Numbered from the stretch's first letter, positions 2,837 through 20,678 are shown. The stretch: DNA of 26,822 bases from a virus (IMGVR_UViG_3300035532_000270:1-26822), one strand, 5' to 3'. Made by a program: numbers and translations. The notes: generated by a model from the letters alone, not told the origin.

Positions 2837-3400
2837 TTAAATATCATCCCCGATGCCGATGCGGCCCAGGGGGTATACGGTCGTGGTGCAGCCGCCGATG
2901 ACAACGGCGCTGTATGTGGGAACCTGGGACATGCCTGCCGGAGTGAGCTGGATGGTGCCCAGGTGGCTTCTGGTGTTTTTGGCCTTGATGGCCACCTTTT
3001 CCACTTCATCATAGGTAGCCTGGTTCACCATGTATCCGCCAGGCACCAGGATATTCAGGTCAAAGGTGCCCCGGGTGCCTTTGGGATCCTTTTCCCACCA
3101 CTCGATCACTTCCACCCCAAAGCCCAGGGACGCCAGGGCGATCTCCAAAGCACCCCGGGTTCCCTTGTGGCGGTGGACGGAAATGGAATTTTTAACAACC
3201 TGGCGCTGCTGGGTCACTGTCCAGGCCGGCTTCCACTCATCCACGGAAACGGCCCAGGCCAGCCAGGGCAAAACAGATACCGGGCACTTGTCCGGATTCC
3301 ACATATCCCGGATGGGGACGGCAATGCCTTCAATCCTTATGGCCTGGGTGCCGTCGGCAGCCAACTCAAGGGCAGAGGAATTGGGTGATAAAATACTCAT
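2837..3400 (-). CDS. Phage tail protein I (P2 gpI-like)
   Basis: IRDMWNPDKCP...LPWLAWAVSVDEW...HRHKGT motif; lies between J and the fibre gene. Confidence 0.92.
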   Translation of the reverse strand: MSILSPNSSALELAADGTQAIRIEGIAVPIRDMWNPDKCPVSVLPWLAWAVSVDEWKPAWTVTQQRQVVKNSISVHRHKGTRGALEIALASLGFGVEVIEWWEKDPKGTRGTFDLNILVPGGYMVNQATYDEVEKVAIKAKNTRSHLGTIQLTPAGMSQVPTYSAVVIGGCTTTVYPLGRIGIGDDI

Positions 3401-14885: not shown

Positions 14886-15535
14886 CAAACGCCCGGAACC
14901 TTAAGTTTTTTGGCCATACCCTTGGCGGCCATACGGTCCCCGAACCACCAGGTGACAGAAGTCACCGTCAAATAAAAAATAATGCCCACGGCGTCGGATG
15001 TGATGCCGGTTGCCATCTTTGCAGTGATCTGGGACGGGTTGATTTTATCCAAAAGCTGCCAGGATTTAATGGTGATCCAGGTGCTGATCCCCAGCAGGTA
15101 AAAAGTGATCCCGGGCCGGGCAGACCCTTTGACCAGGTCAAGTGTTCCAAAAAAGAGCGCCAGCAAAATACCGGCAGGGACCGCCAGGTATCTCAGCCGT
15201 CCTTCAACGGCAAACAGTCTTTCCATGTAAGACGCATCAAAAAAATTAGCCTGAATAGATCCAAGGCTTTGGGTAAACGCTTCGGTCTCGGCCAGATCCA
15301 CGGCCCCGGACACCCGGGCTGAAACGACTTCGATCTGCGCCCTGGACTCGGCAATGGTTGCGTCTGATTCGGCTTTCACCATTGCCAGTTCATGGGACCG
15401 CCGTCCGGCTTTATCCTTGATCTCCAGCGCATACAATTTACGTTTATTGTGGCTGGACCAGATCGTACCGATCAGTCCGGTAATGCCGCCCAGCACCCCG
15501 CCTGTGGCAAGATTTGCCAATATTCCCTCAAGCAT
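14885..15535 (-). CDS. Putative holin-like membrane protein
   Basis: Several hydrophobic segments, RP..T and WWFGDR motifs as in 3TM GTA-type holins, basic C-terminus, next to the putative lysin. Confidence 0.6.
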   Translation of the reverse strand: MLEGILANLATGGVLGGITGLIGTIWSSHNKRKLYALEIKDKAGRRSHELAMVKAESDATIAESRAQIEVVSARVSGAVDLAETEAFTQSLGSIQANFFDASYMERLFAVEGRLRYLAVPAGILLALFFGTLDLVKGSARPGITFYLLGISTWITIKSWQLLDKINPSQITAKMATGITSDAVGIIFYLTVTSVTWWFGDRMAAKGMAKKLKVPGV

Positions 15536-15980
15536 GCTGCCTCCATTGTTCGATAATGGTTATACGGGCCTTTCTGCCCTTCATGATTGAATTAAACCGC
15601 CTCACCATAGGTCTTGATGCCAATATGGCCCGCTGGCCGTTTAAACAGCCGAATTTTGAGCCCAGCAGCACACAGCCCTGTACGTGGGTTTTCCAGCCTT
15701 TTGCCACATCCCCGGCATAATTGCCCGAATGAATCAGGATATAGGACCTGCCCGGAACGTTCCGGATGTGGAACGCTTTCCAGCGCCTGGACTCCCGCCA
15801 CGCAACCGGGTAGGTGCCCGGCGGGATACAGGAGACACAGGTCCTGTTATCCCGCCAGGGCAGTTCCAGGCAGGGGCAGTAAAATTGCAGACCGGGTGCG
15901 GACAGCCTTCCTTCCGTGCCCTGGTCAGATCTGCGCAGCCGGTGAATATAAAGCTCTATGGTGTCTGTGGTGTAGCTCAT
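15528..15980 (-). CDS. DUF5675-like protein, putative endolysin
   Basis: LELPWRDN....SCIP.G.Y, VPGRSYILIHSGN...GCVLLG (His/Cys motif); occupies the lysin slot. Confidence 0.75.
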   Translation of the reverse strand: MSYTTDTIELYIHRLRRSDQGTEGRLSAPGLQFYCPCLELPWRDNRTCVSCIPPGTYPVAWRESRRWKAFHIRNVPGRSYILIHSGNYAGDVAKGWKTHVQGCVLLGSKFGCLNGQRAILASRPMVRRFNSIMKGRKARITIIEQWRQHA

Positions 15981-16076: not shown

Positions 16077-16220
16077 GGATGGAATATGTTAAATAATCCT
16101 CACTGAATAGAAAGATATGAGCCTCAAGATGTTGTGTCCGGCATCGTTTTGCGAAAAGCAAGCGTTTATAGACAAAAGGCTCGCTTTTCTATTACTCAAA
16201 AGTTTTGATTTATTTGCGAT

Positions 16221-16272
16221 TTTTAATGATTCAAAATCACCGGCTTGTCCGTGTGCATTTTGATTGTTGAAT
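16221..16272 (-). other. Degenerate attC-like site 3
   Basis: Minus strand ATTCAAC-aatcaa-AATGCAC-acggacaagccg-GTGATT-ttgaatc-ATT; L box with one extrahelical base, R' GTT not intact. Confidence 0.6.
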
Positions 16273-16288
16273 TTTCATGCATTTATGC

Positions 16289-17311
16289 TCAAATATAGAT
16301 TTGATCTCCTTTTTCTTGTTCGATCCAATTATTAATAATTTTAAAAATATCATTAAATACAGGATTTGTTTTTAATTTGCTGCTATCATTTAAGTTTACT
16401 TTTGAATGTAACCGCGGTATTTGCCCGTCGAAGTCTGTTAAAATGTGCGTTCCACCAAAATCTTTAACATAATTTTTAATGAATTCAATTGAGTATTCTA
16501 AACTGCCTTTCTTATTTGGATTGAAAGTCGAATACGTGAACCTTAATGGGTCTAAAATCTGACTTGTTTCAAAAGTTGTCCACGCAACAACATTGGGATG
16601 TGTATTGTTTGTTCGTAATTTTATATTCAATGGTGAAGGAACATAAATAAACGCTTTAGGGAGATTGGGTGAGTTTGTTAATAAATCAATTGTTTCTTTA
16701 GACAAAAAGCTTCCAATAGCCCTTGGAATATTATTTAGAAAAGAATATTCATGGTTCAAAAATAATATCCCATCTAAGTCTTCAATCCATGGTGCACCGT
16801 CCCGATTTGTCTTTAAAAATTCAGAATAAACAGACTTAGAAACAATAATAGGGATGCCTGAATCTGAAAACCAGCTATCAGGACTGACAGCGCTTAATAA
16901 AGTACAGAAATTACCTTTCAACTGAGGTTTTAATCTAACACTTCCATATCCAGCATCTATTATTTTTCTTTTTCCTTCTAAACTCAAAACATCTACTTTT
17001 CCATCTGTTGTCGTAGCCACGACCTCTTTATATCCTTCAACAATTTGTTTTTTAATTTCTGGTCTCCATAATTTTCCAGGTAGCTTTGGAATATATTCTG
17101 AAAGATAAAAATTCTTTAATTTCACAATTTGACCCGGTGCAATTTTTTGGGGATTAAAAATACATTCCCAAAATTCTTTTGAGCTCTTCAATTTTACAGG
17201 ATTGGTTATTGTTTTTTTGATATTTAATTTTAAGTAATCGTAAACATTAAAATACCCAAAAGTGTCTTCTAATAATCTTGAAAAAAAGTATTTCTTTGTT
17301 TCATTAAGCAT
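16289..17311 (-). CDS. Hypothetical protein, cassette 3 (340 aa, AT-rich, apparently soluble)
   Basis: Long AT-rich ORF, SD AAAGGGG, flanked by attC-like sites; no family recognised. Confidence 0.8.
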   Translation of the reverse strand: MLNETKKYFFSRLLEDTFGYFNVYDYLKLNIKKTITNPVKLKSSKEFWECIFNPQKIAPGQIVKLKNFYLSEYIPKLPGKLWRPEIKKQIVEGYKEVVATTTDGKVDVLSLEGKRKIIDAGYGSVRLKPQLKGNFCTLLSAVSPDSWFSDSGIPIIVSKSVYSEFLKTNRDGAPWIEDLDGILFLNHEYSFLNNIPRAIGSFLSKETIDLLTNSPNLPKAFIYVPSPLNIKLRTNNTHPNVVAWTTFETSQILDPLRFTYSTFNPNKKGSLEYSIEFIKNYVKDFGGTHILTDFDGQIPRLHSKVNLNDSSKLKTNPVFNDIFKIINNWIEQEKGDQIYI

Positions 17312-17366
17312 ATTTCCCCTTTAAAGTTTCACGGCTCAATGAGTCGAAATATCGAAATATGGCCGG

Positions 17367-17443
17367 GGTGAACGTGCCCTTCACCAGCCGGGCGGCGAAC
17401 AATGGCACTATAGCTCGGTCCGAGTGCGAGGAGCTGGTTAGGC
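17367..17443 (-). other. attC-like recombination site 2 (77 bp)
   Basis: Minus strand GCCTAAC-cagctc-CTCGCAC-tcggaccgagc...gcccggctg-GTGAAG-ggcac-GTTCACC, starting 2 nt after the stop of the 146-aa gene. Confidence 0.82.
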
Positions 17444-17445
17444 CA

Positions 17446-17886
17446 TTAATGATTGATAAACCAACAAATACCAATCCCAAAAATTATAATATGTATAATC
17501 CCCCAAAGAATATTCAGCTTCCAATTAAATAAAATTGGATGTTTTCCCTTTGATATTGTTCCGGCTGTTTCTCTTATCTCTTTCAAATTGAGATCTTTTA
17601 ACAACCGATCAAGCTCGTCTCGGTATGCACGAGCTCTTTCTAAGTGAAATGAAAATCGTTCATGCTCTTTCATTGTGAAAATGGCACCGAAAATGCCAGT
17701 TAGACTGAGTATGATTGAAGGAATTACATCTGCACAAGTAATACTTTTATCAAAAAATATCAAAGCAGTAATTGCGCCTGCCACAGCAAGTAGAACCCCT
17801 GTGACCTTTATTCGAAGATCCCTGTGTTGCCGGCACTGTATCCATTCTTCCTGATAAAATTTAAATAGGATTTCAGTATTTTCCAT
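17446..17886 (-). CDS. Three-TM membrane protein, cassette 2 (146 aa)
   Basis: SD AAGGAG; three hydrophobic segments with an N-terminal Y..E..Q.RQH..LR helix; bounded by attC-like sites. Confidence 0.82.
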   Translation of the reverse strand: MENTEILFKFYQEEWIQCRQHRDLRIKVTGVLLAVAGAITALIFFDKSITCADVIPSIILSLTGIFGAIFTMKEHERFSFHLERARAYRDELDRLLKDLNLKEIRETAGTISKGKHPILFNWKLNILWGIIHIIIFGIGICWFINH

Positions 17887-17905
17887 GTTTAAAGCTCCTT
17901 ATAGG

Positions 17906-17966
17906 CCTGAACGTACTTTTCAGCGGCTGCGGCTTTTTGCGGTCGGCTGCAAAAGTTTTGTTAAGT
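17906..17966 (-). other. attC-like recombination site 1 (61 bp)
   Basis: Minus strand ACTTAAC-aaaact-TTTGCAG-ccgac-cgcaaaaagccgcagccg-CTGAAA-agtac-GTTCAGG; the gene stop TAA lies inside R'' as in many cassettes. Confidence 0.87.
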
Positions 17967-19091
17967 GATATTCTTTACATTAATTCTCATTTTAAGAGGC
18001 CTTGTTGGGTGTTTAACCAATCCTTGAGCAGGCCCATCAGATGTAAACAAATTGGATAGAACAGTAATTAATGCCCCTAACAATATATAGCCAAATAATA
18101 CATGAATACTCAATAGACAATGGGCAAACCAGCTATCTGGGGAAGCATACATATCACCAAAACCTAATGTAGTCATTGTTACTATTGAGAAATAAACACT
18201 TCGTATCGGCTGCCAAGGGCCTAAGTTTGAAATTAATGCAGGAAAGAAGAAGTATAGAACTGCAAAAAACATACATATACTGAAAAATGACTTTATTACC
18301 TGCATAGGAGATCGTCCATAGTCTGAGAAATACCAAAATATTTTAACAAATGTTGATAGGACATCTCCTTGTTTATCATACCAATCAACCCAGTTATGTC
18401 GGCGGTTGCAATATTGTAAAGTTTGACGTAGCCCAGCAGAAAAGCATGCATTCTCAAAACTAACTGATCGAAAATCTGTTTTCTTTGACACACAAGCGAT
18501 ATCAAAATAGGTAGTATTAGTAAATTTAGCATTGCAAAAAAGAGTACCACATAAATTGAATCGTAGCTCCCGATTTACCACTGGATTATGCCCACCTCCT
18601 AAAAATTTTGCGGCAGATAAGTCAGATCTTGAAAAGTCACACTCATAGAAATTTGAGGATAAAAATTCAACTGAAGTTAAATTTGCTTTTCGAAAGCTTG
18701 CGCATGTGAAGTCAACAAGCGCACATACTGAATTTTCAAAATTCGCTTGGTGCAAATCGGTTTCTTGGAATGTTGATCCTTGAATCTTAGCGCCTTGAAA
18801 ATCAGCTTCCCATAAGTGACACTTAGACATATCAACATTTGATAAGGATGCATCTTTGAACGATGCTTTATATAAATCAGCCCCTTCGCCTTTTTTGTTC
18901 TGAAAAATTGTATCTGAAAAACTTAGACCTACAAAATTTGCACCTCGTAGTCTTATGATATCATTAGAATTTGAAACATATTCATTCCACTTTTCGAAAT
19001 TATTTTTAGTAGCGCAGCTTAGAAGTAAACTATACTGTTCTTGATTTAATTCTTCTTTCACTAAAACACCTACATTTATTTGTAATACCAC
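17961..19091 (-). CDS. Pentapeptide-repeat protein fused to a two-TM potassium-channel pore (Ion_trans_2), cassette 1
   Basis: Many A(D/N/S)(L/F)xx repeats, then SDYGRS, TM, YFSIVTMTTLGFGD filter, TM. True start may be GTG at 19061 (AGGTG upstream). Confidence 0.9.
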   Translation of the reverse strand: MVLQINVGVLVKEELNQEQYSLLLSCATKNNFEKWNEYVSNSNDIIRLRGANFVGLSFSDTIFQNKKGEGADLYKASFKDASLSNVDMSKCHLWEADFQGAKIQGSTFQETDLHQANFENSVCALVDFTCASFRKANLTSVEFLSSNFYECDFSRSDLSAAKFLGGGHNPVVNRELRFNLCGTLFCNAKFTNTTYFDIACVSKKTDFRSVSFENACFSAGLRQTLQYCNRRHNWVDWYDKQGDVLSTFVKIFWYFSDYGRSPMQVIKSFFSICMFFAVLYFFFPALISNLGPWQPIRSVYFSIVTMTTLGFGDMYASPDSWFAHCLLSIHVLFGYILLGALITVLSNLFTSDGPAQGLVKHPTRPLKMRINVKNIT

Positions 19092-19194
19092 TTAACAAGT
19101 AGCTTTCCGATTGTCCGGCTATCTTGAGCATTCTGACATCTAACCACATATCATGAGGAATCAACGGATAACCGGAACGGTTTGACCTGTTAAC
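19090..19194 (-). other. attI-like primary site / imperfect inverted repeat at the head of the array
   Basis: Core GTTAAGTGGTA (19096-19086) matches the complement of the cassette-1 R'' end (GTTAAGTGATA) at 10/11; no L-box with extrahelical base; arms tccggctatc / gataaccgga. Confidence 0.65.
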
Positions 19195-19242
19195 ATCTTA
19201 GTATCTATATGAATTGCATATCATTATGGTTGACGAGTGTAA

Positions 19243-19271
19243 AGAATATTCAGGGAATAAGACTTTGTAAA
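19243..19271 (-). promoter_or_regulatory. Putative sigma70 promoter facing the cassettes (Pc-like)
   Basis: TTTACA (19271-19266), 17 nt, TATTCT (19248-19243). The region is AT-rich, so a chance match is possible. Confidence 0.5.
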
Positions 19272-19589
19272 TGAATTTGCCAGAAATCAACCGTTCTTGT
19301 GTCATCCGATATTCTCTGAACACTCAAATATTCGTGCGGTATTCATGATGAAAACAAGTAATACCAAGGCCCACAATAATGGTATGATTGAACTTTTTTT
19401 TCTGAAATTGTCCGACCACCAGATATTGTGTCTGCCCAGAAACGCCACCAAGAAATTTTCTATATTATAAATCTCCCTCGGATCTGCCACTCTTTTGATT
19501 CTACAATTTGTTCTATTAAATTGAGTTTGACGGACTTCTGAAAAATCAGGAATTTAATGTAATAAATTGATTTTTTATGATCTATTTCA

Positions 19590-19961
19590 TTATTCCTCAT
19601 ATTTGTAATAATGAAGTTTGCGAAGTGATAGCCAACCAAGACAACCAAAAAGGAAATACAACCCACATAGCATCAAAATGGTTTCTAAATTCGATACAAC
19701 ACTATTAAAATTGACAAGAAGGAAACCCAATTCAAAGAATAAGGCGGATGTAAATCCAATAATTAAAGCGCTTTTGGAATCACCATTTTCATAATCATGG
19801 ATGATTTCATTTGGTTTAGGATGGAACAGTGACAGAAATTTAAAACACCATAAATAGAAAGATGCTGATGCAAAAACCATTACACGGAATCCTTGCCAGT
19901 AGAAAAAACTTTTCTTTTTGTTATTCATTTTTTTATCCGTGATGGTGTTTATAGAAATCAA
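19590..19961 (-). CDS. Hypothetical AT-rich membrane protein (about 3 TM)
   Basis: Three hydrophobic stretches; start uncertain (an internal ATG at MNNKKK is plausible). Confidence 0.55.
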   Translation of the reverse strand: MISINTITDKKMNNKKKSFFYWQGFRVMVFASASFYLWCFKFLSLFHPKPNEIIHDYENGDSKSALIIGFTSALFFELGFLLVNFNSVVSNLETILMLCGLYFLFGCLGWLSLRKLHYYKYEE

Positions 19962-20020
19962 GATTATTGGAGATTAACCATCCCGGACAAAGAAACGCAA
20001 GAATAAATTTGATATATTAG

Positions 20021-20054
20021 TAAATAAATTGGGGGAGATAGATTCTCCCCCCAA
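20021..20054 (-). terminator. Rho-independent terminator after the Mor/C gene
   Basis: Minus strand GGGGGAGA-atcta-TCTCCCCC then AATTTATTTA; coincides with the GC-to-AT boundary. Confidence 0.72.
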
Positions 20055-20138: not shown

Positions 20139-20591
20139 TCAATCCACATCCCCAAACGGCAGCTTCATCTGCACCCGGTCCAGCTTCAGCCGCCGCTGCC
20201 GGGAAATGATATTGTAAATCTGGGTGGTGGTCAGCCCGGTCTGCCGGGCCAGGGCCAGATGGTTCCCCCCGTCAAACGCCTTGTAGATCAGCGCATCTCG
20301 GATGGCCCGTTTCAACCGGTCATCCCGGGGCAGGTAAACGGCCCGGCCCCCGAGATAATGGGCAATCACCACCACAATATCCTGGACCACCTCCCGGGAG
20401 ACCTCCGGGTCCGTACCCCGGCGCCCGGAGAAATGGTCATAAAGCACCTCCACCAGATCCGCCAGCAGACTGGGCCAGTTCTGGGCATCCTGGCGGATCT
20501 CATCATCCAGGCCGTCCAGGACCATGTCCGCTGTCATGGCCGCCGGATCAAACAAAGAGAGCTGGTTTTCACGTATGGGCCGGGCCTTCAT
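20139..20591 (-). CDS. Mor/C family transcription activator
   Basis: WPSLLADLVEV, IAHYLGGRAVYLPRDD.L..AIRD..IY..FDG.N...LA....LT...IYNII; start moved to ATG 20591 (GAGGTG upstream). Confidence 0.92.
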   Translation of the reverse strand: MKARPIRENQLSLFDPAAMTADMVLDGLDDEIRQDAQNWPSLLADLVEVLYDHFSGRRGTDPEVSREVVQDIVVVIAHYLGGRAVYLPRDDRLKRAIRDALIYKAFDGGNHLALARQTGLTTTQIYNIISRQRRLKLDRVQMKLPFGDVD

Positions 20592-20678
20592 ATTCACCTC
20601 CTGTAATATTGCAAAATCAAGACTGGCAGGCTGCTGTTTATTCTCTTTGCCCACCTGCGCATATGTCCGCATATAACG

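Follow-up and report, generated by a model that had tools for sequence, protein, structure and literature searches.

A predicted host-family attI platform and an integrase-less cassette array in the cargo slot of a Mu-like prophage

The viral record IMGVR_UViG_3300035532_000270, analysed over its full 26,822 bp and called the window here, is a Mu-like prophage that carries three integron-type gene cassettes between its late activator gene Mor and its lysis genes, without an integron integrase. The explanation that we favour, and consider probable, is that this array was a ready-made host set of clustered attC sites without integron integrase (CALIN), equipped with its own attI, that was captured into the Mor-lysis cargo slot of the prophage, and that a host IntI would serve it in trans. 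The array comprises three co-oriented open reading frames (ORFs) of 376, 146 and 340 aa, each with its own attC-type site after it, behind a non-coding platform that holds the predicted entry site:

19096..19385, minus strand: platform of about 290 bp without intI, holding the candidate cassette promoter and the predicted attI, with a 9-nt insertion relative to other copies
19094..19125, minus strand: predicted attI core, crossover between G and TT at 19096/19095
19243..19271, minus strand: candidate cassette promoter of sigma-70 type, 17-nt spacer, 9 of 12 consensus matches
17912..19095, minus strand: cassette 1, ORF 17961-19091, pentapeptide repeats and an Ion_trans_2 channel domain by profile match
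17906..17966, minus strand: attC1, 61 bp, intact
17373..17911, minus strand: cassette 2, ORF 17446-17886, membrane protein with weak SLATT/8xMP likeness
17367..17443, minus strand: attC2, 77 bp, one L-arm mismatch and a competing fold
16227..17372, minus strand: cassette 3, ORF 16289-17311, protein of no known family with 24 homologs, non-complementary ends
16221..16272, minus strand: attC3, of a short 50-bp family, right core ATT
16166..16227, minus strand: 3' segment T, found by sequence matches after the last attC of several platform arrays

The initial annotation had described an integrase-less cassette array at this place, and on re-reading the sequence its coordinates, its GTT sites (19096, 17912 and 17373) and its predicted cassette lengths of 1184 bp for cassette 1 and 539 bp for cassette 2 proved correct; at 16227, ATT replaces GTT. 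The absence of an integrase was borne out as well, given that tblastn of six IntI proteins returned nothing better than E 0.05 in the window and no intI remnant within the platform, and that no tyrosine recombinase was found among the 36 window ORFs scanned. The array thus lacks the adjacent intI gene of a complete integron and corresponds to a CALIN, with at least two attC sites close together and no integron integrase within the 26.8-kb record. An Rfam search of the window gave no match.

The attC sites were scored with an end-profile and pairing model whose training set was 27 attC sites in arrays that adjoin complete integrons, with 60 random islands as the control. attC1 reached 31.0, more than all 60 random islands (maximum 26.4) and more than the rest of the window (26.4), and members of its family are present in six other loci. 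attC2, at 25.9, is borderline, since one of the 60 random islands and one further site in the window score higher, and the attC hairpin is not its lowest-energy fold. attC3 falls outside the top-scoring sites because of its ATT right core and is likely inactive, although its type is common beside complete integrons and its homologs in other genomes carry GTT. Both attC1 and attC3 belong to attC families present in Desulfobacteraceae arrays. The folding z-scores of the attC sites (-1.3, -1.6 and -2.2) are weak taken alone, and the predicted circular site of cassette 1 folds better than its array form (-16.0 versus -10.0 kcal/mol). A first, loose attC scanner was dropped, as its 4 observed sites against 2.6 expected are at chance level. 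The view that these are integron-type cassettes, co-oriented single ORFs with attC-type ends, is therefore upheld, while the attC-like hairpin said to follow each gene is sound at attC1, borderline at attC2 and devoid of GTT at attC3. Likewise, the complementary ends ascribed to the cassettes are found in cassette 1 (10 of 11 bases) and, only with a one-base indel, in cassette 2, whereas those of cassette 3 match around GTT only, so that cassette 3 departs from the definition of an integron gene cassette. Cassette 1 would still be excisable, and cassette 3 is probably locked by its ATT.

The missing GTT of attC3, the misfolding of attC2 and the non-complementary ends of cassette 3 are what would be expected of a passive relic, that is, a piece of a decayed host integron island that illegitimate recombination brought into the moron slot and that has ceased to recombine. 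The population, which looks uniform, and the insertion sequence (IS) elements that break many copies of the platform elsewhere point in the same direction. On the other hand, all three ORFs are open, attC1 and the GTT of the predicted attI are intact, and the divergence at attC1 from a chromosomal copy that is otherwise 98-99% identical, described below, implies recent exchange. We therefore regard a passive relic as doubtful, and return to a captured host array as the reading to be developed.

The origin of the array is best traced through its platform. The region 19080-19580 was searched against 161 genomes of the family and matched 33 of them, some via the upstream repeat alone; loci were then fetched around the longer matches, and 25 chromosomal Desulfobacteraceae loci reach the platform 3' end. 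GTT stands at the expected place in 24 of these 25. The comparison took in 22 sequences, namely the window and 21 loci, after removal of two loci that have their first cassette in common, one that lacks GTT and one that lies at a contig end. Their pairwise identity averages 0.70 over the 30 nt before GTT and 0.28 over the 30 nt after it, with GTT serving as the alignment anchor, so that the identity of GTT itself is by construction. The next ORF behind GTT is co-oriented in 19 of 21 platform loci. The same core is located 102-145 nt upstream of, and divergent from, the genes of an IntI clade of about 445 aa (25 of 30 loci yielded the core), and this IntI passes TIGR02249 with 350 bits against a cut-off of 265. 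A 23-nt core pattern was matched at 46 places in 29 of the 161 genomes, compared with one reversed-control match, and at least 6 of the 46 lie about 100 nt upstream of an IntI gene or fragment. A profile built from the solo copies, i.e., those that stand without an integrase, detects the window at 63.7 bits together with 13 of the 30 IntI loci. Because platform copies diverge at GTT and the same core adjoins integron integrases of one IntI clade, the upstream GTT site, annotated initially as a core recombination site, is by position and sequence homology an attI.

The candidate promoter that had been proposed upstream of this site is present in sequence at 19271-19243, and a -10-like hexamer (TATTCT or TAATCT) occurs in 14 of the 22 platform copies where the block could be located; its consensus match is not above chance, as promoter-like sites in the region number 10 against 16.4 expected.

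It could be argued that the 290-bp stretch is not an attI but the end of a gene-less promoter cassette with an attC-like hairpin of about 105 bp, or else a secondary site of the attG type. Positions 19090-19195 can indeed form a long imperfect hairpin, and such a cassette would likewise end at GTT. However, the left core of this hairpin stems from the 9-nt insertion private to the window, its fold z-score is -1.0, and the core matches attI sites beside IntI genes; for the first two reasons 19090-19195 was also rejected as a fourth attC. attG sites, moreover, are described as unlike attI (10.1101/2022.09.11.507474), and the entry site in the window is homologous to attI rather than the dissimilar site that defines attG insertions and single attC sites lacking integron integrases (SALINs). 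This alternative is thus very improbable, and an attI-bearing host array remains the reading followed here.

A near-identical chromosomal copy lies in genome G042. Its platform is identical at 279 of 280 positions and is devoid of the 9-nt insertion of the window, and the cassette 1 that follows is 98-99% identical (685/692 and 491/501), within non-phage flanks. In that genome, nested IS elements totalling about 5.5 kb, with an 8-bp target duplication, interrupt cassette 1 (L111:10996-16502). Identity between the window and G042 ends at attC1, two bases past GTT. Behind attC1, G042 carries a DRT8 cassette (E 6e-162), whose own ends pair at 7 of 8 bases, and the window carries cassettes 2 and 3, but both arrays end in a related 3' segment, which is identical at 42 of 62 positions between the window and G042 and at 55 of 62 between the window and the copy of another genome. 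As a 99% identical 5' part is joined to a 68% identical 3' part, attC1 would be a junction of recent date, in line with what IntI-type exchange predicts; recombination of the homologous or illegitimate kind close to attC1 may have acted there instead. Cassette variation at GTT junctions, anticipated among related prophages, is thus seen among chromosomal platform copies, including attC1 of this pair, and not among phages.

Of the 25 platform loci, 6 have the 3' segment behind their last attC, and the segment takes the same place in three loci that have no platform within about 9.8 kb. These figures are biased, since platforms were the starting point for fetching loci and the profile seeds had been picked out for their likeness to the window. 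The whole layout, from platform to 3' segment, is accordingly already present in chromosomes. In a scenario that would accommodate these observations, the cargo slot that the prophage has between Mor and its lysis genes would have taken up, as a block, a host-family attI module with its cassettes. Orphan platforms would be recombined in trans by an IntI whose gene is elsewhere in the cell, with cassettes entering by attI x attC and being exchanged by attC x attC recombination. In the lysogen, cassette 1 would be expressed from the platform promoter, and the phage would bring the module into further hosts. Cassettes 2 and 3 may have arrived before or after capture, both orders being compatible with the data.

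As to the viral context, every gene of the record lies on the minus strand, and profile scans of the ORFs give the order MuA, MuB, GemA, Mor, then head and tail genes; with MuA/MuB, Mor, GemA and Mu-type head genes, it is a Mu-like transposable prophage. Its host is most likely a sulfate reducer of the Desulfobacteraceae, because terminase relatives at 82-85% sit in Desulfobacteraceae assemblies and the window sequence occurs in oil-field metagenomes. A contig beginning at 19981 is about 25 kb long in 3 of 4 deep runs and so reaches about 18 kb beyond the window end, which is consistent with an integrated prophage. The island that holds the array (16085-20030) has a GC content of 34%, against 57% and 53% on its two sides, and is placed between Mor and the lysis and late genes, the second flank preceding the Mu-like head genes:

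20139..20672, minus strand: Mor/C late activator gene, upstream phage flank (PF08765 E 1e-24, phrog_532)
15528..15980, minus strand: DUF5675 gene, first of the downstream phage late operon (PF18925 E 1e-30), conserved as a flank in L003, L004, L039, L040, L042, L050 and L230

Mu-like prophages have moron or accessory slots in which AT-rich variable cargo lies between conserved modules. As in such slots, the relatives of the window are empty or hold other cargo; unlike them, the cargo of the window brings its own recombination sites. The Mor-to-late-gene slots of nine related prophages contain 118 bp to 4.8 kb of unrelated DNA, one of them being empty, and the Mor-lysis slot is for this reason, as far as these alignments reach, a general cargo hotspot. 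The slots of L003, L040, L042 and L050 hold other AT-rich cargo, one gene of L003 matching the PADLOC model PDC-S31.

The initial annotation had gone further and seen in the array a landing pad resident in the phage, whose lineage would keep the platform and gain or reshuffle cassettes as a prophage through host IntI in trans. It is true that the predicted attI, the candidate promoter and attC1 look intact, that cassettes 2 and 3 differ from the cargo of the G042 chromosomal copy and have no DNA match at E<=1e-12 in the 161 family genomes, and that the same slot of a distant Mu-like prophage, L019 (terL 64%), is occupied by a clean integron-type cassette. That cassette (L019:2321-3620, minus strand; attC at 3021-3080) has ends complementary at 9 of 9 bases and faces against the phage genes, and no Desulfobacteraceae platform was found in the L019 slot. 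Against a landing pad, neither the platform nor a credible attC is present in any of the nine related Mor-lysis slots (no attI core, no attC above 19.6), and profiles of platform, attI and 3' segment had no hit among 135 phage or prophage loci (1.93 Mb) other than L001, which is identical to the window. The cassette shared with G042 is attI-proximal, so that the differences are distal, and the full platform-to-3'-segment layout already exists in chromosomes. Aligning related prophages thus revealed unrelated or absent cargo instead of cassette variants at GTT junctions, and the platform is a chromosomal module of the host family. A landing pad of the phage's own is accordingly unlikely, even more so than a passive relic.

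This comparison is confined to relatives at 86% or less at the terminase, with no near-identical phage among them. A near-identical phage with other cassettes was not found: Mor searches in viral contigs returned no near-identical phage, the DUF5675 search returned only the identical L001 from viral contigs and nothing from metagenome contigs, and both the terL search and the DUF5675 alignment gave relatives at 86% or less only. Platform patterns had no match in viral and metagenome contigs, in exact-match scans that are hence weak, and the island had none in 50,697 phage or 72,556 plasmid records.

Several observations count against capture of an array that is still served in trans, and have to be set beside those that favour it. 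In the window itself, the core has 3 mismatches to the 23-nt family pattern, the platform bears the 9-nt insertion, and with a profile made from intI-adjacent attI sites alone the site ranks first in the window but at E 0.26. The breakpoint relative to G042 is not fixed to the base, given the identity two bases past GTT, and G042 gave no IntI match. With regard to movement, no cassette-skipping joint indicative of excision was found in the contigs of 8 runs, contigs being an assembly product that drops rare forms, and one difference-free contig spans 14000-19995 in 4 deep runs, which are a possible source of the window DNA; uncovered parts in four shallow runs were left out. Among the solo copies, many of which look decayed, a clean first cassette is rare (at most 3 of 25 show at least 4 contiguous or 6 of 7 complementary bases), the scanner detected an attC within 6 kb in 5 of 25 platform loci, and a 14-base pattern for an empty platform gave 12 matches versus 13 in the reversed control, none preceded by a platform.

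As for the supply of integrase, no IntI ORF lies beside the solo platform copies, and the genes upstream of them are mutually unrelated. For 15 platform copies in 9 replicons with an IntI, the nearest IntI is 50 kb to 3.3 Mb away, and 13 of 14 genomes with platform loci have some IntI match, often of another clade or broken. The platform copies start at the same base (window 19385) after many different upstream sequences, and in L097/L251 and L256 the left-end motif also lies immediately past the intI stop; this hints at an origin of solo platforms from complete integrons that were mobile. In ten loci (L117, L130, L136, L146, L148, L153, L161, L252, L254 and L256) the sequence right after GTT at the attI junction resembles the interior of an attC site and not the start of a cassette, as though the L box had served for recombination.

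Regarding the cargo, the cassette 1 protein has a 33% homolog encoded beside a complete integron, and a weak match to Hailong HalA (E 1e-4, 21 bits against a cut-off of 250), whose partner genes are absent from the window. The cassette 2 protein shows three hydrophobic segments and sub-threshold likeness to SLATT (E 0.013) and to a 2TM effector (E 0.04); 8xMP is present in 12-37% of the members of its nearest Atlas clusters, and nothing relevant on the 8xMP/RipA family turned up in the literature. The cassette 3 protein gives a confident structure model (pLDDT 78.8), with no Foldseek match at E<=0.001 and no sequence relative in the PDB. It has been reported that integron cassettes often encode defence functions (10.1101/2024.07.02.601686), and since the sister array in G042 carries DRT8, a defence role of the cassettes is plausible by analogy. 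Of the proteins scanned behind solo platforms, 11 of 33 match PADLOC models at E<=1e-5 (PD-Lambda-2 A and B, SoFic, RdrA, TIR and others), several at the domain level only and with no control set.

Upstream of the platform, the island contains a fourth ORF, which the initial annotation lacked, as it did the repeats bounding the array:

19590..19961, minus strand: ORF of 123 aa by ORF call, two hydrophobic segments, no attC and no family match in profile scans
19386..19567, minus strand: dispersed non-coding repeat U, often before the platform left end (sequence matches)
19955..20020, minus strand: repeat V, non-coding and dispersed in Desulfobacteraceae, ahead of the 123-aa ORF, with many short matches in G042, G045, G034 and G118 and also in prophage locus L131

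Repeats U and V and segment T flank the array, yet they are not identical copies. The repeats bounding the island (19386-19567, 19955-20020 and 16085-16190) also bound unrelated cargo in a second Mu-like prophage (L131:7000-11340) and are numerous in chromosomes of the family; possibly they are the mark of a second system of cargo delivery.

It has been reported that 10,705 phage genomes contain 17 CALINs, that 5 of 6 tested attC sites recombined, and that the CALIN of Shewanella prophage M16-3 has its own attI (Qi et al. 2023, PMC9892861). Like these phage CALINs, the window has attC-bounded cassettes in a phage without intI and an attI at the array start, and phage attC sites can be IntI substrates. 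Unlike M16-3, which also holds a complete integron, the window record is a Mu-like transposable prophage without intI; its attI belongs to a multi-copy solo platform family, of which a near-identical chromosomal copy displays cassette exchange. IntI action in trans on arrays without intI has been proposed (Ghaly et al. 2022, PMC9668308), and an attG insertion route has been described (Loot et al., 10.1101/2022.09.11.507474). The window resembles chromosomal CALINs and SALINs in being a small array without intI, and differs from them and from attG insertions in that a conserved attI accompanied by a candidate promoter, and not a degenerate attG, forms its entry site, and in that arrays of its type have a 5' platform in common and, at six loci, also a 3' segment. 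Defective class 1 integrons bordered by transposable elements of the miniature inverted-repeat kind (MITEs) or integron mobilization units (IMUs) are moved by functions in trans (PMC3575428); they are similarly non-autonomous integron units served in trans, whereas the window array is not class 1 and its flanking repeats are not an identical pair.

What is new here is the dispersed solo-attI family, as phage CALINs, one of them with an attI, have already been published; our literature search, with most subscription papers outside it, found no description of such a family in Desulfobacteraceae or in a Mu-like phage. A more speculative possibility, which we advance tentatively, is that Desulfobacteraceae harbour a family of non-autonomous mini-integrons, each consisting of a promoter-attI platform and a conserved 3' segment without an integrase, scattered in up to several copies per genome, that might obtain their cassettes, often with defence genes, through a single distant IntI acting in trans, and that might travel between hosts when a copy lands in a Mu-like phage, the phage then acting as a live shuttle for cassettes. 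The usual view of small integrase-less arrays is that they are decayed integrons or stray insertions. In the present case the entry site survives and recurs in many copies, and the cargo appears to have been swapped recently, which suggests a third route, that of solo attI platforms served in trans. Defined parts are at hand for a direct test, namely one IntI clade, its attI, and a phage-borne and a chromosomal copy whose difference lies at one attC. Should the platform be functional on the phage, a transposable phage that itself has no integrase would transfer cassettes from one sulfate reducer to another.

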